Positions 41,477 through 64,000 are shown, counted from the first letter of the stretch. The stretch: 64,000 nt of DNA from Hadesarchaea archaeon (GCA_029259175.1 JAPDJH010000009.1:18123-82122); one strand, 5' to 3'. Program-made: numbers and translations. Notes: generated by a model not told the origin, from the sequence alone.

Positions 41477-41491
41477 GCGTTCGGGGAAAGC

Positions 41492-41923: not shown

Positions 41924-41947
41924 AAAAAGGGAAAACTCTGGCCGGGG

Positions 41948-44542: not shown

Positions 44543-44584
44543 AAAAGGCAAAAGTTATAACACCCCTATACTCACCTTCTAAAG

Positions 44585-46567: not shown

Positions 46568-47697
46568 GCGAAATCGCGCGCTACGGTCCATATCATCCCA
46601 TCCACCTTGAGCCGGAGGTCTACGAGGTTCATGTTCGCGAAGGCAGGATTTCGGATGTACGTATCGAGCAGGGCTTCACTCACCGGGGGATTGAGCGCCT
46701 TCTAGAGCAGCAGTCAGTGAAGCACGGGGTTCTCTTGGCAGAACGGGTCTGCGGATTGTGCTCTCAGGCCCATGCGGAGGCCTACTGCACTGCGGTGGAA
46801 AACACGCTCAAAATCGAGCCGCCGGAGCGTGCGGCACATATTCGAACGCTTGCTTTCGAGCTCGATCGAATCCATAGCCACCTCATGTGGTTCGTGCTTT
46901 TGTTTCACTCCGTGCGCGACACTGAGGCATTAACCGTGGTGCTGAACCGGCGAGAACGGCTGATGGATCTAATCGAATCGCTGTTCGGGAATCGGGTTCA
47001 CTTCTCCATCAACACTCCGGGTGGGGTAAAACGTGACTTGCCCGCAGATGCGGATCAGCTTGTGCGCCGAACGATGGAGCACGTGCGCAATCTCGCAGAT
47101 TTCGTGAAAAACAAGGTAGAAGCGCACTCGCAACGACTGAGTGGAATCGGTGTATTGCCAAAAGAGAAAGCTAGAGCTTACGGGGTTGTAGGACCTGTGC
47201 TCCGCGGGTCGGGGATCGCCAGCGACATAAGGCGGGACGATCCGTATCTGATCTATGACGAATTGGAGTTTGACATCCCGACGGAGGACTCCTGTGACGT
47301 ACTGGGACGAACGCGTGTGCGGGTTGCCGAGCTCTACGAGTCCATCCGGATAGTTGAGCAGACCGTGAAAAGAATGCCGGTAGGCGAACTCTCGGTGGAG
47401 TTCCCATTCCCGTTGACCAATGAGGACTGCGGGCGAGTGGAGGCTCCCCGTGGAGAGCTCATCTACTTCGCGCGGCTGAGGGGGACCAGCTTTCCGGATC
47501 GTGTGAAGCTCAGACCGCCCACCTATGTCAACGACCCAGCCGTCGCCGAGATGCTCAAAGGAGAACCACTTGAAAATCTGCCGCTAGTCCTCGAGAGCAT
47601 CGACCGCTGCATTTCATGCACTAATCGCGTGACAGTAATTGATGAACAAAACGGGCATGTCAAAAAAATCTCGCTGGAGGATCTGGTGCGATGGTAG
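46564..47697 (+). CDS. Group-4 [NiFe]-hydrogenase large subunit-like protein (EchE/NuoD-type) with intact Ni-Fe ligand motifs
   Basis: 377 aa. 'GPYHPIHLEP' N-terminus. L1 motif 'RVCGLCSQAH' (RxCGxCxxxH) and C-terminal L2 'DRCISCTNR' (DxCxxCxxR), followed by a 22-aa tail. Confidence 0.75.
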   Translation: MSEIARYGPYHPIHLEPEVYEVHVREGRISDVRIEQGFTHRGIERLLEQQSVKHGVLLAERVCGLCSQAHAEAYCTAVENTLKIEPPERAAHIRTLAFELDRIHSHLMWFVLLFHSVRDTEALTVVLNRRERLMDLIESLFGNRVHFSINTPGGVKRDLPADADQLVRRTMEHVRNLADFVKNKVEAHSQRLSGIGVLPKEKARAYGVVGPVLRGSGIASDIRRDDPYLIYDELEFDIPTEDSCDVLGRTRVRVAELYESIRIVEQTVKRMPVGELSVEFPFPLTNEDCGRVEAPRGELIYFARLRGTSFPDRVKLRPPTYVNDPAVAEMLKGEPLENLPLVLESIDRCISCTNRVTVIDEQNGHVKKISLEDLVRW

Positions 47698-48548
47698 ATG
47701 AGCTCCGAGTATATCGGTTCAACGCGGGGTCGTGCAACGGTTGTGATATTGAGGTCGTCAGTGCTCTAGCGGAGCACTACGGTCTTCAAAACGTCCGGGT
47801 GGTAGAAGAGGTGGAAGAGGCAAACACCATGGTAGTTGTGGGTGTCGTAACGACGAAGACCGAGTCCCATCTGAGAGCAGCTTATGAAAAACTCCAAGAT
47901 CCCAAGCTCGTTATTGCCGTGGGGACGTGTGCCGTTTCGAGTGGAGTGTTCGATGGCTCCTACAGTGTCCGGAATCCGCCTGAGACATACATCCCAGTGA
48001 GAGCATATCTAAACGGGTGCCCCCCTAGCCCTCACTCGATCGTCTCAGCTCTCCGCGCCCTTATGGCCCGCCAAGACTCCGAGTGGACAGCGCCCAAGGG
48101 CTACAGGGGATTGCCGGTGGTCGATGCCGAGAAATGCACCGCGTGCGGAGCTTGCGCTATCGCCTGTCCCGCTAGCGCTATCGAAATCGAAGAAGCCGAC
48201 GAAGGCAAAATCGTGCGCTACTTGCACGATCGCTGCATCAGTTGTGCCACCTGCGAGCTCGTGTGTCCGGAGGACGCGGTGAGGCTGAAGGAAGAGCGTC
48301 ATCCGCTGGTGGCGGAACGAGAAAAAGCTAGGGTGGAAACGAAGTTCACAACGGTGCAGTGCCCGGTGTGTGGTAGTGGGCACATAACGGAACGGCATCT
48401 GGACGTGATTGTTGAACGGCTGAAAGAAAAAGAGGCGCTGAAAGCCGCTGCTCAGGAACTGCGCGAGCGATCGAAGCTCGAGAGGACTTGCAAGATAAGG
48501 CAGTTGGCTGTGGGCAAGCAATTGCTTTTTAAGCTCGGCTATGGATAA
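47691..48548 (+). CDS. Group-4 hydrogenase small subunit (HycG/EchC-type) fused to 2x[4Fe-4S] ferredoxin domain (EchF/NuoI-like)
   Basis: 'GSCNGCDIEV' (hydrogenase-type CxxC rather than NuoB CC), 'GTCAVSSGVF', 'NGCPP', then 'CTACGACAIACP' and 'CISCATCELVCP', plus extra 'CPVCGSGH'. Confidence 0.7.
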   Translation: MVDELRVYRFNAGSCNGCDIEVVSALAEHYGLQNVRVVEEVEEANTMVVVGVVTTKTESHLRAAYEKLQDPKLVIAVGTCAVSSGVFDGSYSVRNPPETYIPVRAYLNGCPPSPHSIVSALRALMARQDSEWTAPKGYRGLPVVDAEKCTACGACAIACPASAIEIEEADEGKIVRYLHDRCISCATCELVCPEDAVRLKEERHPLVAEREKARVETKFTTVQCPVCGSGHITERHLDVIVERLKEKEALKAAAQELRERSKLERTCKIRQLAVGKQLLFKLGYG

Positions 48549-48577
48549 TCCATTTTGCGGCTGGGGGGAAGGACGAG

Positions 48578-49609
48578 ATGGCTCTCAAAACCGCTCGATC
48601 GCTTTTCGATCTTGTTGGAAATACTCCTCTTATCCGGATCAACAAGATACCCGAGCGCTGGGGGTTCGGAGATCTGGAACTCTACGGTAAGGCCGAGTTC
48701 ATGAACCCCTCGGGTAGTCTCAAAGATCGTATCATCGCCAAAATCCTTTCGCAGGCAATGAAGGACGGCAGGTTGAAACCGGGGATGACCATAGTGGAGA
48801 GCACGACGGGAAATACTGGGATCTCCACTGCCATGTTCGGTGCCCACCTGGGGCTGAAAGTCATGATTGTGATTCCGGCGGGCATGAGCGCTGAGCGGAT
48901 GAAGACGTTGAAGGCCTTTGGGGCTGAAATCGTTCACGTTCCGGGAGGGGAATCGGATGTGGACTTGGCTGTGGAAAAGGCACGGGAGATCGCGAGGTCC
49001 GATCCGGATCGCTACTTTTTCGTTGACCAGTTCAACAATCCGGCCAACGCGGAGGCTCACTACGAAACCACGGGGCCGGAGATATGGGAGCAAATGGGGG
49101 GTAGGATAGATGCTTTCGTTGCGACCGCGGGGACCGGGGGAACCATCACGGGGGTCGGGAGGTATCTGAAGGAGCGGAACCCGCGCGTCAAGGTCTATGT
49201 CGCTGAGCCGGCCGAGTGCCCGCTGCTTTCCAAGCAGCGCTGGGGCAGCCACAGGATTGAAGGTATCGGGGACGGTTTCATTCCGTCGATTCTGGATCTC
49301 TCCGTTCTGGACGGGGTCATCACGGTGTCGTCCGATGAGGCGATCGAGATGACCCAGCAGCTGATCCGGGAGGAAGGGCTTTTCGTCGGGATCTCGAGCG
49401 GGGCCAATGTCAAGTGCTGTTTGAAGCTCCACCGGCGGCACCCTGAGCTCAGGCGGGTTGTGACCATGCTCAACGACCACGCGTTCAGGTACTTCTCCAC
49501 GCGGCTTTTCGGTGTGAGAAAGGAGCTGAAGGTCCCGGAGCGGCCCCATCCGATCAGCGTCACCCCCGAACAGCGAAGACATCTCTCGCGGCTGGAAATC
49601 ATCGAGTAA
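48578..49609 (+). CDS. cysK: Cysteine synthase / O-acetyl(phospho)serine sulfhydrylase family PLP enzyme
   Basis: 'NPSGSLKDRI' PLP-Lys motif, 'STTGNTGIS', 'GTGGTITG'. Confidence 0.75.
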   Translation: MALKTARSLFDLVGNTPLIRINKIPERWGFGDLELYGKAEFMNPSGSLKDRIIAKILSQAMKDGRLKPGMTIVESTTGNTGISTAMFGAHLGLKVMIVIPAGMSAERMKTLKAFGAEIVHVPGGESDVDLAVEKAREIARSDPDRYFFVDQFNNPANAEAHYETTGPEIWEQMGGRIDAFVATAGTGGTITGVGRYLKERNPRVKVYVAEPAECPLLSKQRWGSHRIEGIGDGFIPSILDLSVLDGVITVSSDEAIEMTQQLIREEGLFVGISSGANVKCCLKLHRRHPELRRVVTMLNDHAFRYFSTRLFGVRKELKVPERPHPISVTPEQRRHLSRLEIIE

Positions 49610-49749
49610 AAAACGTACGGGATGCTGACTCAAATTGCCTGAGGAGTCGATTGGCCACTGTACCATTTTTTTCAGATTTCGAAACGTCCGCAAACCACAG
49701 TCCCGTCAGCGATGGGGCTTAATACCGGGCGCTGCTTATCTTTTTCTGG

Positions 49750-49876
49750 GCCGGGGTAGCTCAGATGGTTAGAGCGCCAGACTCATAGCCTCGAAGCGCG
49801 GCTGTGAGTGCTGATCCCGCGAGATGATGGGTGAGAAATCTGGAGGTCGCGGGTTCGAGTCCCGCCCCCGGCACCA
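49750..49876 (+). tRNA. tRNA(CAU) (elongator Met or Ile2) with 50-nt intron after position 37, CCA encoded
   Basis: Acceptor GCCGGGG/CCCCGGC, D-arm GCTCAGATGGTTAGAGC, anticodon stem CCAGA/TCTGG with loop CUCAUA, intron 49788-49837, T-arm GCGGGTTCGAGTCCCGC, ACCA. G1:C72 and the anticodon stem are not initiator-like. Confidence 0.7.
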
Positions 49877-49937
49877 TCCCGCTCACAAAACCATATCACC
49901 GTTTAAAAGAGGAAGAACTTTTGTTCACCAAGTGGAC

Positions 49938-51128
49938 TCATTCGCGTAAAACCTTCTGCAAAAACGGAAGTGAGACCAGCCCCACAACAACAAACATCAG
50001 AAACGGTGCCGAAGGACCACACCAGTCAGCGATGACCCCACCAACGCCCGGGAAGATACCCCACCCGGCCATGCCCACGGAGTTGAAGATCCCCAGCACT
50101 AGCCCTGGACTGCTTCGCTCACCGAGCTTCGAAATGCTGCTGACCACCGCAGGGTAGACTGCACCCTCGGCCACGGCCAAAAGTAAAGAAAACAGTAGCA
50201 ACACCGGGTAGGTGGTCGCAAGGGCGAGACCCAGCGAGACGAACGCGGACGCGCCTATACTCGCCACGATCATCCGCTTGGCCCCGAAGCGATCCGAGAG
50301 ACCGCCGAGCGGTGCGAACACCACTCCTCTCACCACGGTAAACACAGTTATCAGCGTGCTGGCCTCGAACTCCGTGAGGCCCAGATCCACTACAGCATAC
50401 GCTGGCAATAAGGTATGAAAAATCGCGACCACTCCGATGTAGATCAGAGTGGCAAAACACAGTGGAAGCAAGCGGACAAAATCGGGTCGTTTCAATACCC
50501 TGCGCGGCGGCTTGAACTCGGTCATCAGAACCGGAATTACCGAGCAGATTGCTAGCGCGGCGCTCCACAAGAAAACCCAACGAGCACCAAACTCGGGATA
50601 AGCCCATCCAGCAAATATCGGACCGATACCAAACGCTGCGGCCCACGACGTCCCATAGAGACCCATAGCACGGCCGCGTTCGTGCTCGCCGGACAACTCG
50701 GCAATGGCCGTCTGCATGTTGACCCACACAGGTGCCTCAGCCAACCCCTGATAGAGCCGGACGAGCAAAAGCTGGGTCACGGAGCTGCAGAAGGTATAGA
50801 GATAGAAGGAGAATGAGGTCATGACATAACCAAGAACAATGAACCGTCTGCGGCCAAAGCGATCACCCAGCACGCCCGCTGGAATGGAAAAGATCACGTC
50901 AAAAATCACATACATCGTGCCTATTAGACCGATCTCTGTGTATGACGCCCCCAGCTCCTTCGCAGCATAGATGGGGAGCAACAGCGCCACCGCTCCCATC
51001 GCGAGAGATACCAAAAAGCTGCCGATAAGCAGACGGCGCATCACACCAATCTTTCCCGTTAGGTTAATACGTTTTTGAATCCATTCTCTCACGATGTTGA
51101 AAACACCCATTGTGGTGGTGAACTTCAA
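49938..51128 (-). CDS. MFS transporter
   Basis: 396 aa, 12 predicted TM helices, 'GDRFGRRR' MFS motif. The true start may be the internal ATG at 51041, to avoid a 35-nt divergent overlap with the TIM gene. Confidence 0.7.
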   Translation of the reverse strand: MKFTTTMGVFNIVREWIQKRINLTGKIGVMRRLLIGSFLVSLAMGAVALLLPIYAAKELGASYTEIGLIGTMYVIFDVIFSIPAGVLGDRFGRRRFIVLGYVMTSFSFYLYTFCSSVTQLLLVRLYQGLAEAPVWVNMQTAIAELSGEHERGRAMGLYGTSWAAAFGIGPIFAGWAYPEFGARWVFLWSAALAICSVIPVLMTEFKPPRRVLKRPDFVRLLPLCFATLIYIGVVAIFHTLLPAYAVVDLGLTEFEASTLITVFTVVRGVVFAPLGGLSDRFGAKRMIVASIGASAFVSLGLALATTYPVLLLFSLLLAVAEGAVYPAVVSSISKLGERSSPGLVLGIFNSVGMAGWGIFPGVGGVIADWCGPSAPFLMFVVVGLVSLPFLQKVLRE

Positions 51129-51771
51129 GACTTATCCCGAGTCCACCGGCGAACGCGCGGTTCAGCTGGCAAAAATTATCGAACAGGTTGCACAGGATTA
51201 CTCAGCGTCGGTTGCAGTGTGCCCACAACACGCTGACATATACCGGGTGTCCAGAGAAGTGAGTATTCCAGTTCTGGCACAACACGTAGATCCCCTCAAG
51301 CCCGGGCGAAACACCGGGTGGGTAACGCCCGCATCCGTAAAAGCGGCGGGGGCTGTGGGAACGCTGATTAACCACTCCGAGCACAAGATTCCACACGACC
51401 AAGTAAAGCAAGTGGTGGATCTCTGCCGAAGCAAAGAGCTAGTCACCATCGTGTGCACGGCCGATGTGGAGGAGAGCAAAGGGCTGGCGGCACATTCGCC
51501 GGATTTCATAGCGGTAGAGCCTCCTGAGCTCATCGGGACCGGAATACCGGTGTCTAAAGCCAAACCGGAAATCGTGAGCGGTTCAGTAAAAGCCATTCAA
51601 GAGGTGAATTCATCTGTTCAAGTGCTGTGTGGGGCAGGAATAACTACCGGAGAAGACGTTGCGAAAGCTGTAGAACTCGGAACCGTGGGTGTGCTCGTCG
51701 CCTCAGGCATTGTGCGAGCAAAGGATCAGCGCGCAGCCATCGAAGACATGGTTCGCGCTCTCCCGAAGTGA
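51094..51771 (+). CDS. tpiA: Triosephosphate isomerase (archaeal type)
   Basis: 'IVVVNFKTYPESTG', 'INHSEH', 'IAVEPPELIGTG', 'LCGAGI...GVLVASG'. Confidence 0.8.
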   Translation: MLKTPIVVVNFKTYPESTGERAVQLAKIIEQVAQDYSASVAVCPQHADIYRVSREVSIPVLAQHVDPLKPGRNTGWVTPASVKAAGAVGTLINHSEHKIPHDQVKQVVDLCRSKELVTIVCTADVEESKGLAAHSPDFIAVEPPELIGTGIPVSKAKPEIVSGSVKAIQEVNSSVQVLCGAGITTGEDVAKAVELGTVGVLVASGIVRAKDQRAAIEDMVRALPK

Positions 51772-51804
51772 TTTTAAGACTGTTCGCTACCCAAGGAGAA
51801 TTGG

Positions 51805-51879
51805 GCCGCCGTAGCTGAGCCTGGTTACAGCGGCCGCCTTGTAAGCGGCAGATCGTGGGTTCAAATCCCACCGGCGGCT
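51805..51879 (+). tRNA. tRNA-Thr(UGU)
   Basis: Acceptor GCCGCCG/CGGCGGC, anticodon stem GCCGC/GCGGC with loop CTTGTAA, T-arm GTGGGTTCAAATCCCAC, discriminator T, CCA not encoded. Its 3' end is repeated twice downstream. Confidence 0.75.
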
Positions 51880-51881
51880 CA

Positions 51882-52112
51882 TTACAACTTCTCCAACAGC
51901 TCAAAGAACCTCTCTCGGGTAAGCTCCGCCTCCCGGATTATCGCCCGCACGAGCGCTGGCTTGATCTCCCTATCCGGATGGACCGGGATAACGGTACGCA
52001 CGTTCTCTTTCATCAGGATAACGTGGGGACCCTTCCTCCTAACAATTCGAAATCCTTCATGGATCAATATCTTGATGAGCTTCTCAGCTGGAACAGGCCC
52101 GATTTTAGGCAT
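51882..52112 (-). CDS. hicA: HicA toxin (mRNA interferase)
   Basis: 76 aa. 'KLIKILIHEGFRIVRRKGPHVILMKENVRTVIPVHPDREIKPALVRAIIREAEL'. Confidence 0.7.
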   Translation of the reverse strand: MPKIGPVPAEKLIKILIHEGFRIVRRKGPHVILMKENVRTVIPVHPDREIKPALVRAIIREAELTRERFFELLEKL

Positions 52113-52359
52113 GAACCTCTACTTTTTGTAATCCAACAACTGACTGCGCCATTTTGAGAACTTCTGATTTCTCCTCTTCATCAAGGGTTTCCAAGTAGAG
52201 TTCGATTGCCTCCTCAACATTTTTCATCAACTCTTCGAGCGTTTCGCCTTGCGTGTGGCACCCTGGCAGGGAAGGAACAAACGCCACGTAACCGCCCGTC
52301 TCATCCTTTTGAACCACTACATCGAACATCAATCTCTTGGCCATGTCTTTCCCAACCAC
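52105..52359 (-). CDS. hicB: HicB antitoxin
   Basis: 84 aa. 'MFDVVVQKDETGGYVAFVPSLPGCHTQGETLEELMKNVEEAIELYLE'. 8-nt overlap with hicA. Confidence 0.7.
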   Translation of the reverse strand: MVGKDMAKRLMFDVVVQKDETGGYVAFVPSLPGCHTQGETLEELMKNVEEAIELYLETLDEEEKSEVLKMAQSVVGLQKVEVHA

Positions 52360-52452
52360 TCTATGTAAACCAGAGTATAAAATCTATGGGAAGTTCCAGC
52401 ACGAGCAATCGTCCGTGTTTGACAAGCAGTAGGGAATAGACAAGAGGAATCT

Positions 52453-52490
52453 CTGTCCTTCCTCTTTCATTAAGACCACCGGCGGCTCCA
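52453..52490 (+). repeat. Direct repeat A of tRNA-Thr 3' end (att-like site)
   Basis: 'ctgtccttcctctttcattaagaCCACCGGCGGCTCca'. The last 13-15 nt match the 3' end of the tRNA-Thr at 51805-51879. The whole 38 nt are near-identical to repeat B. Confidence 0.55.
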
Positions 52491-52517
52491 CGAACACAGT
52501 AAATTATTTAAATTTTG

Positions 52518-52529
52518 AAACAATTGTTT
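52518..52529. promoter_or_regulatory. Perfect 12-bp palindrome AAACAATTGTTT in AT-rich promoter 5 nt upstream of the wHTH-MNT start (putative autoregulatory operator)
   Basis: Read directly. Embedded in 'taaattatttaaattttgAAACAATTGTTTtaaatATG'. Confidence 0.4.
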
Positions 52530-52534
52530 TAAAT

Positions 52535-53083
52535 ATGAAACATCTAGACGAAAAGGCTTTGAAGGTGCTCACCTACTTCTTTGAGAACCCGCGAGAAGAA
52601 GTTTACCTGCGGGAACTGGCACGCCGGCTACGGATGAGCCCAGCAACTGTTATGCGAGCCCTACGTCTCCTCATTAGAGAAGGCTTGATAACCAAGCGCC
52701 CGGAGAAGCACGCCACCTATTTCAAGGCCAACCTTAACCCATACTTCAGAGAGTTGAAGAAAGCGCATACGGTTTCCAAAGTCTTGCGCTCCGGAATTCT
52801 TGAACTCATCAACGAGAAATCGGTAGGTCTAAGTTCAATACTGCTCTACGGGAGCGCCGCTAAAGGCGAAGACGATCGGGGAAGCGACTACGACTTTCTG
52901 GTGATTGCCGCAAGATGCGCCCTGAGAAGCAGTGAACTCTCGAAACTTCTAGGGAGAGAGGCCACCCTACAGGTCTTCGACGTGGCGGGCTGGAAACGAG
53001 TAGCAAAGCGAAACCGAGCATTCTACCTAGACGTTATAAGCAATTCCATTGTCCTTTATGGTGGAAAGCCGGTGATCGATTGA
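52535..53083 (+). CDS. wHTH-fused minimal nucleotidyltransferase (MntA-like antitoxin)
   Basis: N-terminal 'VYLRELARRLRMSPATVMRALRLLIREGLI' wHTH, then 'LLYGSAAKGEDDRGSDYDFLV' GS-x9-DxD NTase motif. Confidence 0.7.
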   Translation: MKHLDEKALKVLTYFFENPREEVYLRELARRLRMSPATVMRALRLLIREGLITKRPEKHATYFKANLNPYFRELKKAHTVSKVLRSGILELINEKSVGLSSILLYGSAAKGEDDRGSDYDFLVIAARCALRSSELSKLLGREATLQVFDVAGWKRVAKRNRAFYLDVISNSIVLYGGKPVID

Positions 53084-53520
53084 CGCTTAGGGATTGTCTT
53101 GCGCAAAGGAAGTTGCGCAGGATACGGCCGGATCCGCTCAAAGCCCGCAAATCGCTGGAAGCTGCGTCTGCAAAACTGAAAAAGGCCAAGGAACTCCTCG
53201 CCGATGAGCATTACGATGCAACCCTTCTGTACGCGTACACGAGCATGTTCAGCTCGGGAAGAGCTCTCCTTTACAAGGACGGCATCCAAGAGAAATCCCA
53301 CTACTGTTTGGCTAGGTATCTAGAGGAGAGGTACGTGAAGAGAGGAAAGTTGAATCCAAAGATCATCACCTTCCTCGACTCTTTCCGTGAGGAGCGGCAC
53401 GCGATAATGTATGGGTTCGAGGAGGTTGAAATCCGGCGCGAAGAGGCTGAGGAAGCCATCTCGGTTGCGGAAGAATTCCTTGGGAGAGCTAAAGAACTCG
53501 TGGGTAAGCGTACGCGCTGA
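53080..53520 (+). CDS. HEPN-domain protein (HepT-like toxin partner)
   Basis: 146 aa all-alpha. 'SFREERHAIMYG' R-x(3-4)-H HEPN-like motif near the C-terminus. 4-nt overlap with the MNT gene. Confidence 0.55.
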   Translation: MTLRDCLAQRKLRRIRPDPLKARKSLEAASAKLKKAKELLADEHYDATLLYAYTSMFSSGRALLYKDGIQEKSHYCLARYLEERYVKRGKLNPKIITFLDSFREERHAIMYGFEEVEIRREEAEEAISVAEEFLGRAKELVGKRTR

Positions 53521-53599
53521 ATGAAGAAGCTTGCTATTGCTTATCGTCTTTGGTTCTCTGCCGTGGTTTCTGTCCTTATACTTTTGATAGGAAGCCCAC

Positions 53600-53673
53600 T
53601 AGTGGCTCCACTATATTTTTTAATAAATAGTTAACTTAATATATAGTTAAGTTTTAGGAATAACGGTGTTGAG
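53600..53673 (+). promoter_or_regulatory. AT-rich promoter with TATA-like box and direct repeat ATAGTTAA(N9)TAGTTAA upstream of the 305-aa MNT-fusion gene
   Basis: 'ctatattttttaataaATAGTTAActtaatataTAGTTAAgttttaggaataacggtgttgagATG'. GTTAAC is also palindromic. Confidence 0.35.
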
Positions 53674-54591
53674 ATGTGGCCTGCTGAATGGCTAGCAGAG
53701 AAATACTTTGAGATCAAAGAGCTGCCGCGAATAGTCGATCGAAACATGGTTGCAAAAATTTGGAAAACTAACAAAAACTACGCGAGTGTCACCTTGCACG
53801 AGATGCGCGAAGCTTTACTTATAGACAGATTGAAGAGAGGAGCATATCTATCGGTACCGCCTGAGAAATGGCTGCCGGTGCACTCGTTCCTGATGCGAAC
53901 TCCAGAAATCGCTCCAGCTCTATCTAAACTATTACAGGACTCGATGAACGATATTGAGTGTCTGGTGCTCTATGGCTCGCGGATTTGGGGGGGAGATGAG
54001 CTAAGCGACTGGGATTTCTTCACCGTTGTTTCCTCCGAAAAGTCGAAGAATGCGATGAGGACCAAACTCCTCAAAATCAGGCAAACAAATCTTCGACTTG
54101 ATGTGGAGATATTGTCTGTTCAAGACTTCGAGTTTCTCCTACGCAAAGACCCGATTTTTCTCAAACTCGTAGCGTGCGAGTGCAGGCCCATAGTAGATAC
54201 TGGTATTCTTGGAATTGCCAAGGCAATCGAGATTAAACCAGAACACGTTGCCGTTGAAATGTTGGCCGCGAAAGAAAATATTCTACAGGGCATGGCATGC
54301 GCGCGACGAGGCGAAAGCAGTATCGCCTGCTACTGGCTCACCCGCGGGATCCGGCGAACGCTTGCTGCGGCCCTCTCCATGTGTGAAAACTTCTCCGGGA
54401 AAGCTTTGGAAGAGGAATTCAAAGCACGTTTTCCTCAGTATGAGCAACTTCGGGTGATCGTTAAAAAAATTGGCTTGGAACGAGAAACACATATACCAAA
54501 AAAATTCCTTAGAGAACTTGTTAACAGAACAATAGTCGAGTGGGAACTGGTAGCAAAGGAGTTGCGCAGATGGGGAAAAAGCGCAAAATAA
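53674..54591 (+). CDS. wHTH-nucleotidyltransferase fused to a C-terminal ~170-aa helical domain (possible degenerate HEPN). Single-chain MNT-HEPN-like protein
   Basis: 'VTLHEMREALLIDRLKRGAYL' wHTH-like, 'LVLYGSRIWGGDELSDWDFFTV' NTase motif, long helical C-terminus without a clear Rx4-6H. Confidence 0.5.
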   Translation: MWPAEWLAEKYFEIKELPRIVDRNMVAKIWKTNKNYASVTLHEMREALLIDRLKRGAYLSVPPEKWLPVHSFLMRTPEIAPALSKLLQDSMNDIECLVLYGSRIWGGDELSDWDFFTVVSSEKSKNAMRTKLLKIRQTNLRLDVEILSVQDFEFLLRKDPIFLKLVACECRPIVDTGILGIAKAIEIKPEHVAVEMLAAKENILQGMACARRGESSIACYWLTRGIRRTLAAALSMCENFSGKALEEEFKARFPQYEQLRVIVKKIGLERETHIPKKFLRELVNRTIVEWELVAKELRRWGKSAK

Positions 54592-54848
54592 AGAAACCAG
54601 CAGCGCTTCTGGCACAAAGAAAAGCACACTTGCAACTTGCAGAGGAATTTTCCAAACTCGTACCAACTGAAGTAATTAAACATTGGGAAAAAGAGGCCGA
54701 GCGCTTCGAACGCGAAGCTAGACGGCTTATGACAGGGTTACCCACGAGCTACCTAGAAGAAATAGAAAAGATAAGTGATGAAGAAGCGAAAAAGCTCTTA
54801 CGAAGGAAGCGAAAAGAGATAATCTAGACATTCGCGTAGCGAATCTTC

Positions 54849-54888
54849 TGTCCTTTACTTTCATTAAGGATCCCACCGGCGGCTCCAC
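54849..54888 (+). repeat. Direct repeat B of tRNA-Thr 3' end (att-like site)
   Basis: 'ctgtcctttactttcattaaggATCCCACCGGCGGCTCca'. 16 nt identical to the tRNA-Thr 3' end, with CCA encoded here but not in the intact gene. Confidence 0.55.
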
Positions 54889-54935
54889 AAAAAATAGTTT
54901 ATAGGTAAGGATTTCTTACATTAATTAGTGATGGG

Positions 54936-55187
54936 ATGAAAGGAAGCGTGGTAAAAATTACCTCAAAAGGACAACTTACCCTCCCCGTGGAAATCCGGAG
55001 AGAGTTAGGGGTTAGGAAAGACGATTATCTTTACGTCACAAGAGCTGGTGAGCTAATTCTGATGAAGCGGATCGGAGTGAATCCTAAGGAAATTTTAGAT
55101 ACCTTTCAGCAAGTCGCAAAGGAGAGCGGGCTGACGAGAAAAGAACTAAACCGGGTCATCCGCGAGATCAGGCGGGCAAAAGAATGA
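54936..55187 (+). CDS. vapB: AbrB/SpoVT-family antitoxin (VapB-like)
   Basis: 'VKITSKGQLTLPVEIRRELGVRKDDYLYV' swapped-hairpin motif. Confidence 0.7.
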   Translation: MKGSVVKITSKGQLTLPVEIRRELGVRKDDYLYVTRAGELILMKRIGVNPKEILDTFQQVAKESGLTRKELNRVIREIRRAKE

Positions 55188-55606
55188 ATAAAAAGCCAAG
55201 AGTTTTCTTGGACACGAACGTTTTGATATCGGGAATGGTATTCAGAGGAAACGAGAGGAAACTGCTGGACGCGATTATTGATAACCGATTGAAACTGGTA
55301 ATAAGCGACGATGTTTTGAACGAAACAGAAATGGTCTTCAGGAAAAAATTCCCGCAGCACCGTGTTCTTTTCCCGTTATTTTTGCAGCTCGTGAAGCACG
55401 AAAGAATACCGAGAAAAGCGTATAGAAAAGCCGAAAAGACATATTCTGGACTCCTCCGTGACAAAACAGACGCCCACATCCTTGCGGCCGCTGTCGTGGG
55501 CAAGTGCGATTATCTAATTGCCGGCGACAAAGAACTCCTTTCCCTGAAGAAAGTTGGTCTCACAAAAATAATTCAAACGTGGGAGTTGCTGAGAGAATTG
55601 AAATAA
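55184..55606 (+). CDS. vapC: PIN-domain ribonuclease toxin (VapC)
   Basis: 'VFLDTNVLISG' and 'AHILAAAVVGKCDYLIAGD' PIN acidic residues. 4-nt overlap with vapB. Confidence 0.8.
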   Translation: MNKKPRVFLDTNVLISGMVFRGNERKLLDAIIDNRLKLVISDDVLNETEMVFRKKFPQHRVLFPLFLQLVKHERIPRKAYRKAEKTYSGLLRDKTDAHILAAAVVGKCDYLIAGDKELLSLKKVGLTKIIQTWELLRELK

Positions 55607-55665
55607 ACGTGTGCTCTGTCTCCTCGCGCTTCAGCAAAAACTAAAAACCACACCACCCATCAGAA

Positions 55666-57792
55666 GTGTTGGTGAAGAGACTCGCTCTCCTAGCTGGAGC
55701 AATCCTCATCATTCTCGCCATGGCTCTCCACACTGGAGAAAAGAAGGGAGTTGAGCTGCCCCCGCCGGAGGAGAACCTCGTGCCTTCTCCATCCCAGCAA
55801 GGGCCCGCATGGGAAAACGAAATGGAAGAGATTTTGGTCCAAGTGTTCGAGAGCTCCTATCGAACGGCCGGGCCAGCAGTCGGAGAGTTCGAGAACGGGC
55901 AAGCAGCTGATCTCGTGCTTTTTCAACACGGGTTTGACAACTCCGGAGGCCCACTGAGCTTCAATCACCCCATGGGTCTGACAACCGACGGGCAGAGACT
56001 GATCCTGGCAGACACGCGCAACAACCGCGTTTTGATCTGGAACGAACTGCCCGACTCAAACACCGTCCCCGACCTCGTGCTCGGCCAGCCTGATTTCTAT
56101 CACAACGTTCCCGGCGACGGTTTGGACGAAATGAACTGGCCGGTGGGCGTGGCGACCGATGGCACCAGCCTCGCGGTCGCGGACACGATGAACAACCGCG
56201 TTCTGGTCTGGCTCGACTTCCCCACCGAAAACGGAGAGCCAGCCGACCTGGCCATCTACGGTCCACCCGACCAGCCCATCGGTGGCCCTTGGGGCGTCTA
56301 CTTCCTCGATAACAGATTCATAGTCGTGAGCACTTGGGGCAACTCGGGTGTCTACATCTGGAACCACATCCCCTCAGCCGATGAGCCACCGGATCTTGTG
56401 CTCACGGGCGACGGAATGATGGGAACGCCGCGGCAGGTGTGGAGCGACGAACAAAGACTGGTCGTTGTGGATCACAACATCGCGCTCGAATCTGGGGGAT
56501 CCCAGCCCGGCATGCTTTTCTGGCTGGACTTTCCGACTGCTGACGAGCCACCCGACTTTTACATGACCGGAATGCTGTGGGGACCAGCGATGGACCACCA
56601 GGGGCGCTTCATGGTGCTCAACAACTACGGCCTAGCGATATGGAACGATTTCCCCGCAGGACCGGACGACGAAGCAGATCTGGTCATAGGCTCTCCAATG
56701 ATTGCAGAGTGGATCAGGCGACAGGAGTACCGCTTCGACGATGGAGATGGATCGAGCATTGTTCCTGCGGGCGACCGGCTGTACATCTCGCTGTACAATG
56801 CCAACATGGTGGTCGGCTACCGGTCCTTGCCTGCTTCGCCGGACGATCTGCCAGACTTCGCCTTGGGATCGACGAGTATTTGGATAAATCCGATGGAAAA
56901 CAAGGGTTTCTTCGAGAACCCCGTTCCCGCCTCGGATGGGGAGCACCTCTTCGTGGCCAGCGGATTCAGCAGGCGTCTGTGCGTCTGGCGCAATATTCCC
57001 GATGAGAGCGGTGCAACCCCCGATGTGATCTACACGTTTCCAAATCTTGAGCCCACCAACGTTTGGGTGGAAAACGGAAAGCTGGCGCTCGGAACGAACA
57101 GCTCAATCGTCTACATCTGGAATCACTTGCCCCTAGCAGGCGAACTTCCAGATGTTGTTCTCAACCTAGAAAACATCTTTGCCCCTCCGGAGAGCGATTC
57201 AGCCGAAACCGGCATCATCCCCGTGTGGGTTTGCCTGGCCAAAAACCGGCTGTTCGTTTGGGAGGTCGGGGGGACGATTCTGGTGTGGAACGAGGTGCCC
57301 ACAGAGCAAGAGGACCCGGATCTCGTCATCCCCACCGATCTCCCGATCTCGTGGCTGTGTGTGGACGACGATCGCCTAGTCGTTACGACAAGGGACGATG
57401 AGGTCAGGGTGTATGACCTAATTGACCTCCTCTCCCTCCAGCCCCCGGCTACCGAAAAACTGAGCAAAGAGGGGGCTCCCCAGATCGAAAATGCTCTGCG
57501 TTTGGTATTGAGAAGGGATGCGAACAGGGAGGAGTTTAGAGCCCCCACCGGTGTCCACTCGCGAGAAAACAAGCTCTTGCTAGTAGACCTAGAGCTGAGC
57601 GAGGTGTTTATCTGGAACGGATTCCCCACCCAGAACGACCAGCCACCGGACGCCGTTTTGGGGAGTAAAATGGAGTGGGCAACCAACAGCAACACATTCT
57701 TCTGGCCAGCGATGGTGTGGTACGATGGAGACCACCTCTGGGTCGGGGAAACCAAATTCTCGAACAGACTTCTGAGATTCTCGCCCTCATAG
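55666..57792 (+). CDS. Membrane-anchored NHL-repeat beta-propeller protein
   Basis: 708 aa. N-terminal TM 'LALLAGAILIILAMAL', repeated 'NNRVLIWNELPD...DLVLGQPDF', 'NNRVLVWLDFP', 'VYIWNHIPS' NHL-like blades. Confidence 0.55.
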   Translation: MLVKRLALLAGAILIILAMALHTGEKKGVELPPPEENLVPSPSQQGPAWENEMEEILVQVFESSYRTAGPAVGEFENGQAADLVLFQHGFDNSGGPLSFNHPMGLTTDGQRLILADTRNNRVLIWNELPDSNTVPDLVLGQPDFYHNVPGDGLDEMNWPVGVATDGTSLAVADTMNNRVLVWLDFPTENGEPADLAIYGPPDQPIGGPWGVYFLDNRFIVVSTWGNSGVYIWNHIPSADEPPDLVLTGDGMMGTPRQVWSDEQRLVVVDHNIALESGGSQPGMLFWLDFPTADEPPDFYMTGMLWGPAMDHQGRFMVLNNYGLAIWNDFPAGPDDEADLVIGSPMIAEWIRRQEYRFDDGDGSSIVPAGDRLYISLYNANMVVGYRSLPASPDDLPDFALGSTSIWINPMENKGFFENPVPASDGEHLFVASGFSRRLCVWRNIPDESGATPDVIYTFPNLEPTNVWVENGKLALGTNSSIVYIWNHLPLAGELPDVVLNLENIFAPPESDSAETGIIPVWVCLAKNRLFVWEVGGTILVWNEVPTEQEDPDLVIPTDLPISWLCVDDDRLVVTTRDDEVRVYDLIDLLSLQPPATEKLSKEGAPQIENALRLVLRRDANREEFRAPTGVHSRENKLLLVDLELSEVFIWNGFPTQNDQPPDAVLGSKMEWATNSNTFFWPAMVWYDGDHLWVGETKFSNRLLRFSPS

Positions 57793-57982: not shown

Positions 57983-58783
57983 CTAAAAAGCTGATTCACA
58001 CTTTAGACCTAGAACTTTAGATTTCCGCTCGATTTCTTTTTTTACACTTCTCCACCACTCTGGCGTTTGCAAGATCTTTTTTATCTTAGCAACTTCCTCC
58101 GCGCCAAATACTCGTTCAAGTCTCTCGAGCACACCCGTTTTTACGTTGAGCTTATCATACATCACATAACTTCCACTAGACTTGGCTTCTCGCAACACTT
58201 CTTCGATTTGCTCGGGCGAATCGTTCACACCTGGGATTATAGGGCCCAAGAACAGCCACGTCTCCACATTACGCTCTTTGAATTCCTTCAGAACCTGAAC
58301 ACGTGCATCGGGATCCGGCGCACGAGGTTCAATTTTAGAAACGACATCTGCATCCAGCGTGGTAACCGTCACGCCCACTTCGAATTTCTCCCCCCGGATA
58401 AGATCCCGATCGCGCAACACCAGATCAGATTTGGTCTGAATGCAAACACCAAAACCCGAATCGCGGAGAACCTCCAAACACCGTCTGGTAAGCTCCACCT
58501 CTTTTTCAATTGGCTGGTAGGGATCACAGACTGTAGAAACACCCACCACCCCCGGCCGCTTACGTCTCACTTCAGCCCTCAGCACCTCAGCCACATTCTC
58601 CTTAAGCCAAACATCCTGTCCCCACCTCTCCACCAGTTCGGCATCTCTCAGAATAGCTGGAGAGTAACAGTAGAGACAGCCGTGCTCACATCCGCGATAG
58701 GGATTAAGAGCATAATCCAGTCCCGGAAGTCCGCTTTTCGATAGCGCGCTCTTGCACCGCATCAGGTGGTACCTTGCTTTCAT
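57983..58783 (-). CDS. Radical SAM protein, SplB-like ('DNA repair photolyase' COG1533 family)
   Basis: 'LNPYRGCEHGCLYCYSPA' CxxxCxxC cluster motif in the position typical for spore-photoproduct-lyase-like enzymes. Confidence 0.6.
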   Translation of the reverse strand: MKARYHLMRCKSALSKSGLPGLDYALNPYRGCEHGCLYCYSPAILRDAELVERWGQDVWLKENVAEVLRAEVRRKRPGVVGVSTVCDPYQPIEKEVELTRRCLEVLRDSGFGVCIQTKSDLVLRDRDLIRGEKFEVGVTVTTLDADVVSKIEPRAPDPDARVQVLKEFKERNVETWLFLGPIIPGVNDSPEQIEEVLREAKSSGSYVMYDKLNVKTGVLERLERVFGAEEVAKIKKILQTPEWWRSVKKEIERKSKVLGLKCESAF

Positions 58784-60096
58784 GTCAAGAACTCCGTTAT
58801 TCGTTTTTGATGTAAAACACGCCTAAGCATCCAACTGTGCTTTATCCATTCTCCAAGAGGAATAGTCAGATGGCTCATAGCATGCTCCAACGCCTCGCGT
58901 AGAGTGTCAAACCGTGCTGGTTTCTGCCGCACCATCGCCCTCACACTTTCTCTAACATTCCACACGCCCACCGGCAATATATATCCGGGATGAATCTCAC
59001 GCAACACCAGCACCGCAGCCTGACGTTTTTCTCTTACCAGCTGCTCACACACGGCCAACCTGCAAGAATAGTAACATCCTCCCACTTCGGGATAGGTCGT
59101 TCTCCCCCAATACTCTTCGTAGTCTCCCATCATCGCTGGTTTAGCGGCAAATCTGTCCGGATTCCATGTGGTCCCCGGAAACCAGGCCTCTATCCACTCG
59201 TAACTCCAGCTCTCAGGAAAGAAGATCCCGACAAATCGATTATCAAGGTGGCGAAAAGCGTAGACCCTGTACTCATCGATCACCGGATAGGTCTTCACCT
59301 CGTCCATCAACCGCTGGGACACGATCGAGTCCACGGCAGTTATGCTCCAACGTGTTGGAACTAGACGTCTGCGCTCTTGGACTCCAAACATCCCGAGACT
59401 AAACGCGCGCTGAATCCTGCTGATCTCAACCCCCTGCGAATACAGCTCCCAAACGGCGTCCGCGGCTTTGAGATCCCGGTCATAAAACGTCCGCTCGAGC
59501 TTGTGATCGGAACCACCCACACTCGCTCGAAAGCTGCGCATGGGGGCTGAAGGGCCAAAAGGAGGGATCTCATTTCCGAGTGTCAGAACTGCACTTGGTT
59601 TGCGTTCTAAAACCAGCTCGGCATCCGCAGGAGTGCGGCTAAGCAACATCTCTTGAAGTGTCTCAAGAATGCGGCTACCCGTAGCCGCATCACGAACATC
59701 AGCGCGTGTTTTTCCGCGAATCAGCGAAAAACGAAAATCAATTATTTCCTGAATGTCACGGCCAAGCCATTGCTCGGGAGTATCAAGTATCGATGTATCC
59801 CCCCTTATTGGCGGAACCATTGGCCCTACTAAAACCTTCGGATATCCTATTCGGCCTACAAAGACTCCTGGAGGGCTCGATCCTTCTACTATCGAGGAAT
59901 TGATTTTCAATGATGTTTTCACAAGCGAGCGGGCGCGGGCAAGAACTGGGCAACGCAGCTTGCCGCATAACATGCGCCCGCCCTTGCAGTGCAAACACAC
60001 CGCACCGGAACGCGTGCTCACCACTTTGAAACTCGTGAGTTCCCGAGCGATGTTCGATGGAACAACATCGGCGAGCCAGCTCATAGCCCGATTCAT
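58780..60096 (-). CDS. Nre-family (NreA-like) putative DNA repair protein with N-terminal Cys4 zinc ribbon
   Basis: 438 aa. 'CLHCKGGRMLCGKLRCP' N-terminal zinc ribbon and conserved Trp/Tyr-rich C-terminal region. Assignment from memory of DUF650/651 proteins, not verified. Confidence 0.4.
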   Translation of the reverse strand: MNRAMSWLADVVPSNIARELTSFKVVSTRSGAVCLHCKGGRMLCGKLRCPVLARARSLVKTSLKINSSIVEGSSPPGVFVGRIGYPKVLVGPMVPPIRGDTSILDTPEQWLGRDIQEIIDFRFSLIRGKTRADVRDAATGSRILETLQEMLLSRTPADAELVLERKPSAVLTLGNEIPPFGPSAPMRSFRASVGGSDHKLERTFYDRDLKAADAVWELYSQGVEISRIQRAFSLGMFGVQERRRLVPTRWSITAVDSIVSQRLMDEVKTYPVIDEYRVYAFRHLDNRFVGIFFPESWSYEWIEAWFPGTTWNPDRFAAKPAMMGDYEEYWGRTTYPEVGGCYYSCRLAVCEQLVREKRQAAVLVLREIHPGYILPVGVWNVRESVRAMVRQKPARFDTLREALEHAMSHLTIPLGEWIKHSWMLRRVLHQKRITEFLT

Positions 60097-60229
60097 GCGC
60101 TGCCCCTCTCTTCCTACGTGTCACCAAACTTTGTTTATTTCTTCACACCACACCAAAAATAATCCATCTGCGCGTTAGGGCCACCGTATAGGTCTTATAC
60201 ATCGAGAATCCTCTTTTTTCTTGGTTTGA

Positions 60230-61237: not shown

Positions 61238-61269
61238 GCCTTCTAGAAGCAGGGGAGTATGGGACAAGC

Positions 61270-62045: not shown

Positions 62046-62077
62046 AAACCGGGTTGGAGTGAAGGAAGGGGGTCCTC

Positions 62078-62362: not shown

Positions 62363-62399
62363 AGTTTTACATCTCTGCGTTCAACTCTTTTACGATCCC

Positions 62400-63576: not shown

Positions 63577-63580
63577 ATCC

Positions 63581-63970: not shown

Positions 63971-64000
63971 TGAGATGCAGCGGACTTGTCCGAAGTGTGG

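Follow-up and report, generated by a model that had tools for sequence, protein, structure and literature searches.

Integrase-less toxin-antitoxin cassettes arrayed at tRNA-Thr(UGU) in a Hadesarchaea archaeon are probably moved by a recombinase supplied from elsewhere

The pdif modules of Acinetobacter plasmids are small, recombinase-free segments, often carrying toxin-antitoxin genes, that are bounded by short sites (XerC/XerD dif-like inverted pairs); a host recombinase acting in trans presumably moves them. Integrons and CALINs, including archaeal ones, are built of short cassettes that each end in a conserved recombination site (Ghaly et al. 2022, PMC9668308). They are enriched in toxin-antitoxin modules with promoters of their own, differ in cassette order between genomes, often lack an integrase, and take in cassettes at one fixed primary site (PMC9668308). 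Cis-mobilizable elements (CIMEs), known from Streptococcus and other bacteria, sit between att sites at the 3' end of a tRNA gene and carry neither integrase nor transfer genes; they stack in tandem and, through accretion-mobilisation, are movable by the integrase of a neighbouring or incoming element (PMC5704250); usually they are single and consist of kilobases of decayed ICE/IME backbone. Archaeal elements with SSV- or pNOB8-type integrases also integrate at tRNA 3' ends, between direct repeats, in what has been called 'gene capture' (She et al. 2001 and 2004, as cited in PMC3718332). Tandem arrays of such elements are known for non-suicidal integrases, and chromosomal remnants persist (Badel et al. 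2020, PMC7253208; Krupovic et al. 2019, PMC6563490), with an integrase or its int(N)/int(C) remnants overlapping att. The smallest cryptic element reported from Thaumarchaeota measures 2.6 kb and includes an integrase (Krupovic et al. 2019, PMC6563490).

Here we describe an array at a tRNA-Thr(UGU) gene, within a 64,000-nt stretch of DNA from an uncultured Hadesarchaea archaeon (Hadarchaeota; GCA_029259175.1, JAPDJH010000009.1:18123-82122; hereafter the window), that has features of all these systems. Downstream of the tRNA gene the order is hicAB, site A, wHTH-MNT and HEPN genes, site C, genes for a 305-aa and an 85-aa protein, site B, and vapBC (Table 1). The behaviour proposed below for these cassettes resembles that of integrons or of cis-mobilizable elements. 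Integron-like traits are the short, site-terminated cassettes rich in toxin-antitoxin genes, their shuffled order, the absence of an integrase and entry at one fixed site. Unlike in integrons, the primary site is the 3' end of a tRNA gene rather than attI, no IntI lies nearby, cassettes end in an arm joined to a tRNA-identical core that forms no attC hairpin, and every cassette, judged from its sequence, is a self-expressed two-gene module. The array shares with CIMEs the att boundaries at a tRNA 3' end, the lack of integrase and transfer genes, the tandem stacking and, possibly, mobility through an enzyme of another element; it differs in being archaeal and in consisting of single-operon units of 0.6-1.3 kb, up to four to an array, and we found no parental autonomous element bearing the site in IMG/VR, PLSDB or the JGI metagenomes. 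The tRNA 3'-end position, direct repeats and tandem arrangement are also those of archaeal tRNA-targeting elements, but this array is free of int remnants and its arm does not form a conserved ORF. As in pdif modules, the units are small, recombinase-free and bounded by short sites; here, however, the sites are directly repeated, tRNA-derived and chromosomal.

Table 1. Features of the tRNA-Thr(UGU) array, in window coordinates
Feature	Position	Strand	Evidence
tRNA-Thr(UGU), intact; anchor and primary attachment site	51805..51880	+	ARAGORN; Rfam RF00005, 70.1 bits
hicA toxin gene, cassette 1; stop codon abuts tRNA end	51882..52112	-	Pfam HicA_toxin 6.6e-16
hicB antitoxin gene, cassette 1	52105..52359	-	Pfam HicB_lk_antitox 5.5e-13; 52105-52344 (79 aa) per gene callers
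Site A: arm tctctgtccttcctctttcattaag + core (a)CCACCGGCGGCTCCAC; ends cassette 1	52447..52493	+	nhmmer E 7e-10
wHTH-MNT nucleotidyltransferase gene, cassette 2	52535..53083	+	Pfam HTH_IclR/MarR + Polbeta/NTP_transf_2
HEPN gene, cassette 2	53080..53520	+	Pfam HEPN 3.4e-17
Site C: arm tctgtccttatacttttgataggaag + diverged core CCCACTAGTGGCTCCAC; ends cassette 2	53565..53613	+	nhmmer E 3.9e-11
Promoter/operator-like element AATAGTTAACTTAATATATAGTTAAG, cassette 3	53626..53651	+	Nearly invariant in six loci
305-aa protein gene, cassette 3	53674..54591	+	Pfam Polbeta, weak
85-aa Lys/Glu-rich partner ORF, overlaps end of 305-aa gene, cassette 3	54570..54827	+	Conserved beside homologues
Site B: arm ttctgtcctttactttcattaagg + core ATCCCACCGGCGGCTCCAC; ends cassette 3	54844..54890	+	nhmmer E 4.5e-11
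vapB, AbrB/MazE-type antitoxin gene, cassette 4	54936..55187	+	Pfam MazE_antitoxin 9.6e-9
vapC, PIN toxin gene, cassette 4	55184..55606	+	Pfam PIN_3 2.1e-18

A sequence-only reading of this DNA had proposed that the last 16 nt of the tRNA recur at A and B, and that A and B share some 25 further nt. Both observations hold. The 16 nt in question are ATCCCACCGGCGGCTC (51865-51880), in a gene that does not encode CCA; this 16-mer occurs exactly at 51865 and 54870, with 14 of 16 positions matching at 52473, and the exact 13-mer CCACCGGCGGCTC is found at 51868 (tRNA), 52476 (A) and 54873 (B). With up to two mismatches allowed, the 13-mer has nine matches against 2.3 expected, a count reached in none of 100 shuffles. 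A further exact 13-mer, at 10933, is a chance match, since it lies inside a coding ORF and has no arm. The arm of ~25 nt precedes the core in both A and B, and its segment TCTGTCCTT has just three occurrences in the 64-kb window, where 0.62 would be expected. The third occurrence revealed a site that the earlier reading, with two downstream repeats only, had missed: the diverged copy C (tctgtccttatacttttgataggaagcccactagtggctccac), between the HEPN gene and the 305-aa gene, whose core at 53595 has three mismatches.

Each site spans ~45 nt, with an arm (~25 nt; consensus tctgtcctt-tactttca..gaag) followed by a core of 16-19 nt identical to the tRNA 3' end, (AT)CCCACCGGCGGCTCCA(C). The arm is found in cassettes only and is absent from the tRNA; the repeats are att-type, as had been suggested, each combining a copy of the 3' end of the tRNA with a stretch of element DNA. 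Using a profile built from seven copies (nhmmer), we detected nothing in the window below E 0.06 beyond A, B and C, no terminal site after vapC (55607-55665, E<=100), and no full arm-plus-core match in ~185 kb of Hadarchaeota DNA outside tRNA-Thr arrays. Orientation of the arm relative to the core is constant even where the genes are inverted (hicAB; HepT-MNT in locus L041), and hence the arm belongs to the site and not to gene expression. By inspection of the sequence, the copies share no reading frame through arm and core: A and B differ by a 1-nt indel that shifts the frame, and a stop codon interrupts C. An SSV-type (suicidal) integrase element was considered and rejected; int(N)/int(C) over the att repeats was not seen, nor a frame conserved among site copies.

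Sites A and B run on as ...GGCTCCAC, so that CCA is encoded, whereas the tRNA gene reads ...GGCTCATTAC. Because the tRNA-Thr genes of four relatives (L002, L024, L038 and L041) encode CCA, the CCA-bearing copies look ancestral and the present post-discriminator sequence of the window appears to derive from the junction, in agreement with the earlier suggestion that the 3' end of the intact gene is element-derived. Relative to the orthologous junction of L038, the window is without 9 nt (CAGATTTTG).

The 3' ends of tRNAs are cleaved by some HEPN toxins and are modified by some NTase toxins. Together with the CCA in the copies, this would suit a repeat that acts as a functional RNA or regulatory element, either a terminator or a tRNA 3'-end mimic that serves HEPN, NTase or PIN toxins as decoy or substrate. 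We consider such a role very improbable: the fragment has no complementary 5' acceptor strand and no stable fold, the sites flank HicAB, VapBC and ParE-type cassettes besides those with NTase/HEPN genes, their orientation follows the tRNA rather than the genes, and they mark the exact edges of blocks of homology between genomes. Least probable of all is a fragment of a classical integron, an attC cluster without integrase such as has been described from Archaea, Hadarchaeota among them, even though such clusters are also short, site-terminated cassette arrays rich in toxin-antitoxin genes and often have no adjacent integrase (PMC9668308). Folding sites A, B and C as single-stranded DNA, for either strand, yielded no attC-like hairpin (z -0.17 to -0.90 versus shuffles) and none that was shared; moreover, the insertion point is the tRNA 3' end rather than attI, and the conserved part is a tRNA-identical core with a one-sided arm.

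The three downstream sites bound single-operon cassettes of 608, 1120 and 1277 nt, and vapBC makes a fourth unit. Cores lie at both ends of cassettes 1, 2 and 3, whose only genes are of toxin-antitoxin type; each unit is one such operon of 0.6-1.3 kb, and intergenic gaps in the array are at most 175 nt. All ORFs in 51881-55606 belong to toxin-antitoxin-type families, except the 85-aa ORF (Pfam). The gene content is otherwise as the earlier reading gave it; that overlapping ORF had not been listed. As adjacent small genes of the named families, HicAB, MNT-HEPN (NTP_transf_2 match 23.9 bits, above the cut-off of 21) and VapBC are predicted to be type II toxin-antitoxin modules. The 305-aa protein is predicted to comprise an N-terminal region, an MNT-type NTase and a HEPN-like helical domain. 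In Pfam its NTase match is weak, Polbeta scoring 21.6 bits where the cut-off is 26.9, and PDB profile matches are to HalB and MNT. A structural model with a mean pLDDT of only 61.6 gave Foldseek matches to ANT/LinB and, for the C-terminus, to HEPN-domain proteins (probability 1.0, target TM-score 0.6-0.69); the conserved columns of the C-terminal region include no invariant His, such as a catalytic Rx4-6H motif of HEPN would have. The 85-aa ORF follows every 305-aa homologue examined (56-91% amino acid identity), has no Pfam family and is not integrase-like. The promoter/operator-like element upstream of the pair is also kept in the distant loci L026 and L027.

Similar arrays occur at five related Hadarchaeota loci, at tRNA-Thr(UGU) or tRNA-Thr(CGU). 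A relative lacking the insertion supplied the comparison that had been proposed: in L002, TIM and tRNA-Thr(UGU) are followed directly, 20 nt on, by the next native gene, which is QueE-like. At the same site L001 has a single DUF7557+ParE-like cassette and then a decayed core, and L022 carries other cassettes. G+C is 46.8% in 51881-55606 versus 54.8% and 52.3% in the flanks; every array is lower in G+C than its flanks. The low G+C and the empty site in L002 support the view that the island is foreign DNA. Sequence comparison further shows that cassettes cross between lineages by horizontal transfer: amino acid identity to L038 is 96% for HicB, 89% for MNT and 81% for HicA, against 40-58% for six flanking housekeeping proteins. 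Recent transfer is not required for every shared cassette, since the 305-aa protein of L022 (71% identity) is not above housekeeping (TIM 82%, partial match).

The sites coincide with the ends of shared blocks. Window 52476-53505 matches L041 9942-10971 (80%) and starts exactly at core A; 53605-54889 matches L041 7762-9044 (78%), and 53592-54888 matches both L022 400-1699 (76%) and L024 2412-3673 (78%), so that the blocks shared with these three loci end at 54887-54889, in site B. In L022 and L024, the block with the 305+85 pair begins within the 3' end of the tRNA gene. There the 305+85 cassette takes the first place, whereas it comes second in L041 and third in the window; it adjoins TIM at tRNA-Thr(UGU) (window, L022) or FBPase at tRNA-Thr(CGU) (L024, L041). 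The order is HepT-MNT, 299+85, HTH-MNT+HepT, MNT-HEPN in L041 and 306+86, DUF7557+ParE, MazE+PIN in L022, and MNT-HEPN and 305+85 are thus reversed relative to each other between the window and L041.

We found no member of the Phage_integrase family among called genes of the window (~2.3-64 kb) or of any related array, in keeping with the earlier statement that no integrase or integrase fragment is present, and no annotated tyrosine recombinase within ~50 kb upstream or 8 kb downstream of the array. The sequence-only reading took the locus for two decayed elements. Its att-type repeats, foreign island and missing integrase are supported; its two integrations, successive or nested, with later loss of the integrase are not, given three sites, single-operon cassettes, boundaries that recur in other genomes, differing orders and a second tRNA-Thr gene. 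In its general form, this explanation has successive integrative elements (plasmids or viruses with a tyrosine integrase) entering at tRNA-Thr, each later deleted down to an addiction module and attR. Direct repeats of a tRNA 3' end, low G+C and a relative's empty site are its classic signature, toxin-antitoxin genes resist deletion and could bias what survives, and bacterial cis-mobilizable elements are thought to arise in this way (PMC5704250). We nevertheless judge it unlikely. All cassettes in the six arrays are exactly one operon, with the core as left edge and the arm at the right; the ~17 cassettes contain no integrase gene, pseudogene or other backbone remnant; and the junctions of one cassette are identical in four genomes, which independent random deletions would not reproduce. 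Because these cassettes are uniformly integrase-free, discrete non-autonomous cassettes fit better than independent decay.

The array is therefore probably best read as four integrase-less cassettes that are moved site-specifically by a recombinase supplied from elsewhere. The enzyme would act on the core and is probably a tyrosine recombinase, since most sites can be read as a 7-bp spacer flanked by the halves of an imperfect 6-bp inverted repeat (GAAGCC|CACCGGC|GGCTCC). Two directly repeated cores would recombine, releasing a cassette or cassette block as a circle with one arm-plus-core site, and the circle would insert by recombining with the tRNA 3' end or any resident core. Each insertion would rebuild the tRNA and push older cassettes outward. 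The recombinase could be the product of a host gene, or of an autonomous element that is present only transiently, collecting cassettes and leaving them behind (accretion and cis-mobilisation). Each operon would have its own promoter, and the toxin-antitoxin cargo would select against cassette loss.

An alternative dispenses with a dedicated enzyme and has homologous or microhomology recombination, between the short repeats and the two tRNA-Thr genes, duplicate, delete and move cassettes. Cores plus arms offer 16-45 nt of homology and both tRNA-Thr genes share their 3' ends; two-cassette blocks are common to different tRNA-Thr loci; the window's right flank is syntenic with that of L038 and its left flank is not, suggesting exchange at the tRNA or array; and in L043 an MNT-HEPN cassette sits between 65-nt direct repeats of the thiS 3' end (98.5% identical), as in a Campbell-type insertion. 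However, the arm is conserved across unrelated cargo and genomes, which points to the constraint of a protein-binding site, 13-19 identical nt are very short for efficient recombination, and the first acquisition of arm and core by each cassette is left without an account; we hold this explanation to be improbable. Even with site-specific movement, cassettes may frequently travel as blocks, or through recombination of one tRNA-Thr locus with another, instead of singly, because two-cassette blocks recur in constant order (hicAB then MNT in the window and L038; 306 then DUF7557-ParE in L022 and L024). The events may be old, since A, B and C have diverged from one another and the core of C has its three mismatches. 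Contigs of the same strain from five samples carry an identical array, and there is therefore no sign of ongoing movement in this population.

More tentatively, these loci could represent a cassette-capture system of Hadarchaeota, not described before, in which a tRNA 3' end serves as the fixed insertion site and a dedicated recombinase encoded elsewhere excises, reshuffles and exchanges 0.6-1.3-kb toxin-antitoxin cassettes through ~45-nt arm-plus-core sites, possibly also in other archaea (at tRNA-Gly or other tRNA variants). If so, integrons would have a functional analogue whose evolution was independent of IntI and attC, and the mobility of toxin-antitoxin genes, noted for so long, would have a concrete vehicle.

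The last 16 nt of the intact tRNA-Thr(UGU) gene, ATCCCACCGGCGGCTC, occur again exactly at 54870-54885 (site B) and with 14 of 16 matches at 52473-52488 (site A), and a 13-mer, CCACCGGCGGCTC, is identical at all three positions. At both downstream sites, this tRNA-identical core is preceded by a common arm of about 25 nt, tctgtcctt..ctttcattaag. The sequence-only reading, which described two downstream repeats with a shared arm, was thus right about A and B but missed a third copy, C, that was revealed by the third occurrence of a 9-mer, TCTGTCCTT (three occurrences in the 64-kb window versus 0.62 expected). A profile derived from seven copies and run over the whole window detected A (E 7e-10), C (E 4e-11) and B (E 4.5e-11), and no further arm-plus-core copy below E 0.06. 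A fourth exact 13-mer at 10933 lies inside a dehydrogenase coding ORF and has no arm, and we consider it a chance match; a sequence after vapC at 55613-55660 that by eye resembles a decayed fourth copy was undetected by the profile even at E<=100. A and B encode CCA (the core continues ...CTCCAC), whereas the tRNA-Thr gene instead reads ...CTCATTAC.

The sites divide the island (51881-55606) into units that we term cassettes, each consisting of one toxin-antitoxin-type operon, the first three with a terminal arm-plus-core site. The order is tRNA, hicAB, A, MNT-HEPN, C, 305+85, B, vapBC and an NHL-repeat gene, with core-to-core lengths of 608, 1120 and 1277 nt. The G+C content of the island is 46.8%, as compared to 54.8% and 52.3% for the flanks; vapBC shares the low G+C of the other cassettes, and no distal site is recognisable after it. 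The NHL-repeat gene (55666-57792) occupies the position held by a QueE-like gene in relatives, and contains internal direct repeats of ~24-55 nt, with six copies of a GT.T..ATCTGGAAC...CCC unit, that reflect beta-propeller blades.

Features of the island at tRNA-Thr (window coordinates)
Feature	Position	Strand	Basis or remark
tRNA-Thr(UGU), intact	51805-51880		ARAGORN and Rfam
hicA	51882-52112	-	Pfam
hicB	52105-52359	-	Pfam
wHTH + MNT-type nucleotidyltransferase gene	52535-53083		Pfam
HEPN gene	53080-53520		Pfam
Site C	53565-53613		tctgtccttatacttttgataggaag-CCCACTAGTGGCTCCAC; follows the stop codon of the HEPN gene and precedes the 305-aa gene
305-aa protein gene	53674-54591		Weak NTase match in Pfam
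85-aa ORF	54570-54827		Overlaps the end of the 305-aa gene
vapB (AbrB/MazE-type)	54936-55187		Pfam
vapC (PIN)	55184-55606		Pfam

The 305-aa protein belongs to a small family of 19 clusters, whose profile matches HalB (a nucleotidyltransferase) and MNT antitoxins in the PDB (E 4e-4 to 1e-3); the MNT protein of the neighbouring cassette aligns to its N-terminal region at 25-32% identity. Its AlphaFold model is of moderate confidence (mean pLDDT 61.6), with a well predicted C-terminal helical domain. Foldseek returned nothing at E<=0.001 for this model, the best matches being the two-domain adenylyltransferases LinB and AAD(9) at E of about 0.01; the C-terminus matches HEPN-domain proteins with probability 1.0 and target TM-scores of 0.6-0.69. 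Hence, the nucleotidyltransferase and helical parts of the proposed wHTH-MNT-helical fusion are reasonable, but the N-terminal wHTH is unconfirmed, with low pLDDT and no Pfam match. Since the 85-aa ORF is present beside every homologue examined, we conclude that it is a genuine gene partnering the 305-aa gene. In front of the latter, an element with the sequence AATAGTTAACTTAATA(T/A)ATA(G/A)(T/C)TAAG is almost invariant between the window (53626-53651) and five other loci, even though the protein homologues are only 44-51% identical. This element is probably a TATA box together with a putative autoregulation operator, and it had no match in IMG/VR.

Comparison with related archaeal genomes identified both empty and filled versions of the site. 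The TIM gene upstream of the tRNA encodes a protein with 71-72% identity to TIM of two Candidatus Hadarchaeota MAGs. At one related locus (L002), a QueE-like radical-SAM gene comes immediately after the TIM gene and a tRNA-Thr(UGU) that encodes CCA (ggcggctCCActc); an unoccupied relative therefore exists, as the earlier reading had anticipated, but there the tRNA adjoins the QueE-like gene and not the NHL gene. At the same position, locus L001 has a single small DUF7557-antitoxin + ParE-like cassette, with a decayed core immediately preceding the QueE-like gene. Locus L022 carries an intron-bearing tRNA-Thr(UGU) after TIM, followed immediately by a 306+86 cassette with a full arm-plus-core site, a DUF7557+ParE-like cassette with a second site, a MazE+PIN cassette, a decayed core and the QueE-like gene. 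Arrays are also found at tRNA-Thr(CGU). At L024, where this tRNA lies beside FBPase, it is followed by a 306 cassette, a site, a DUF7557+ParE cassette and another site; at L041, by an inverted HepT-MNT, 299+85, a site, HTH-MNT+HepT, a weak core, wHTH-MNT+HEPN and a site; and at L038, by an inverted hicAB, a truncated site fused to an MNT ORF and a MazE remnant. The fusion at L038 is an example of cassette decay: a deletion (10013-10060) joined the truncated arm-plus-core (…cccaccggcg) directly to the MNT gene at about codon 6, giving a 193-aa ORF that reads through the site, and the HEPN partner was lost.

Homology blocks detected by blastn between these genomes start and stop at the cores, and junction alignments agree. 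Window 53592-54888 aligns to L022 400-1699 and L024 2412-3673, with the left end of each block corresponding to the tRNA 3' end; 52476-53505 aligns to L041 9942-10971, from core A onward, and 53605-54889 to L041 7762-9044. L041 and the window have the MNT-HEPN and 305+85 cassettes in opposite orders. Two pairs of cassettes recur in the same order (hicAB then MNT in the window and L038; 306 then DUF7557-ParE in L022 and L024), suggesting joint movement of a block or exchange between arrays at the two tRNA-Thr genes. The cassette proteins of the window and L038 are 96% (HicB), 89% (MNT) and 81% (HicA) identical, but six housekeeping proteins of the syntenic right flank are only 40-58% identical, indicating transfer of cassettes between Hadarchaeota lineages that are only distantly related; the accession series suggests that both lineages were recovered in a single study. 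Contigs of the same strain from five samples all have the identical array, with no polymorphism among these near-identical strains, and A, B and C are diverged from one another, such that the window array may be old and static. Two independent Logan assemblies (L009 and L011) break at one point, with position 1 at window ~53068; the break falls within the 3' part of the MNT gene, close to where the L038-type cassette homology stops (53117), and is likely due to a graph branch from a co-occurring related strain.

Analogous arrangements occur at other targets. At L027 (5649-5726, 9901-9927 and 11165-11200), 27-36-nt copies of the tRNA-Gly(GCC) 3' end bracket cassettes, and at L026 (5832-5926, 6659-6690 and ~7690-7715) the brackets are a 32-nt copy of the 3' end of an intron-containing tRNA and an inverted fragment of another tRNA. 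In both of these more distant archaea the cargo includes the 306+85 cassette and other toxin-antitoxin cassettes, and the Thr-type arm is absent. MNT-HEPN and 306 are also adjacent at L027, but its HEPN partner has no BLAST similarity to that of the window, and we do not regard the pair as a conserved unit. In the MAG that contains L001 (GCA_040755315.1), a wHTH-MNT+HEPN cassette, 68-69% identical in amino acid sequence to that of the window, is inserted in the thiS 3' end (L043) between 65-nt direct repeats (9866-9930 and 11007-11071; 98.5% identity). This cassette, too, has no integrase, and its promoter is preceded by a remnant similar to the tRNA-Thr core. An intron-containing tRNA is also present in the window itself, between a PALP-family gene and an MFS transporter gene (49750-49873, + strand; Rfam tRNA, 63.4 bits); default ARAGORN missed it, and intron mode gives a 50-nt intron and a doubtful anticodon. 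Such intron-mode anticodon calls are unreliable for intron-containing tRNAs, and were not used for tRNA identity.

We considered whether the sites belong to a known class of element. Integrons have been described in Archaea, Hadarchaeota included, with attC and IntI and without tRNA involvement (PMC9668308). A, B and C fold no better than shuffled sequences on either strand (z -0.2 to -0.9) and share no common hairpin, which argues against attC sites. Nor is the arm a decayed tRNA, since nine arms, locally aligned to the remainder of the tRNA, scored no better than shuffles (p 0.48-1.0). An SSV-type int fragment was rejected because arm plus core has no conserved reading frame: A and B differ by a 1-nt indel, and C has a stop codon. 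The arm-core orientation is constant despite inverted cargo (hicAB, and HepT-MNT at L041), indicating that the arm belongs to the site and not to transcription of the cargo. We detected no member of the Phage_integrase family among called genes at ~2.3-64 kb of the window, and gaps between genes of the island are at most 175 nt, leaving no room for an integrase remnant. We found no autonomous element with this site in IMG/VR, PLSDB or one JGI metagenome scan. The arm pattern had no match in IMG/VR and 10 chance matches in JGI metagenomes, with no core following any of the 10; the core with CCA matched only unrelated bacterial phage DNA in IMG/VR; and searches of PLSDB plasmids and IMG/VR with the 305-aa and MNT proteins gave nothing relevant.

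The low G+C, the empty site and the lack of Phage_integrase genes uphold the earlier view that the repeats are att-type sites flanking foreign DNA without an integrase. That view took the island for two decayed integrations; a better description is a series of separate, non-autonomous toxin-antitoxin cassettes with the tRNA-Thr 3' end as insertion site, an arrangement that recurs across Hadarchaeota. We found no published account of such arrays in the literature searched. Most cassette sites form an imperfect dyad (GAAGCC or GGAGCC, CACCGGC, GGCTCC), with AAATCC as the left half in the tRNA. Tyrosine-recombinase cores usually consist of two half-sites around a 7-bp spacer. Cassette-specific sequence starts right after GGCTCCA(C) and arm-specific sequence ends before CCCACC, which places the exchange within this 16-19-nt segment. 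Recombination of two direct cores would release a circle with one arm-plus-core site. This circle would be inserted by recombining with the tRNA, or with a core already in place, and the tRNA would be restored in the process. The tRNA-hicA junction of the window has 9 nt fewer than the orthologous L038 junction (CAGATTTTG), which accounts for the missing CCA. Because the arrays encode no recombinase, we infer that the enzyme must be supplied from elsewhere, as for cis-mobilizable elements (CIMEs) and CALINs, integron attC clusters without an integrase. In bacteria, CIMEs move when an incoming element joins them by accretion (PMC5704250).

The right flank of the window (57983-64000) is syntenic with that of the L038 array (L038 11954-20582), sharing radical SAM, Nre, diphthamide synthase, ECR1, RNA polymerase L and EndoU genes; the L038 array itself lies at tRNA-Thr(CGU) after PolD and tRNA-Ser. 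The left flank (41000-51880), with TIM and tRNA-Thr(UGU), matches L001, L002 and L022, which have the QueE-like right flank. Since the two flanks match different loci, synteny seems to break at the arrays or tRNA-Thr genes, and the arrays may thus play a part in genome rearrangement. Few prokaryotic genes are as mobile as toxin-antitoxin modules, but movement of bare two-gene units is rarely visible. Here, both the mobile unit (one operon and one 45-nt site) and the target (the tRNA-Thr 3' end) are explicit, and the genome comparisons reveal occupied and unoccupied sites, reshuffled cassettes, and transfer between lineages that share only about 50% identity in their housekeeping proteins. Should a recombinase acting in trans be discovered, the arrays would represent an integron-like gene-capture platform in Archaea based on a tRNA gene, and would provide a tractable recombination site for an uncultured phylum.
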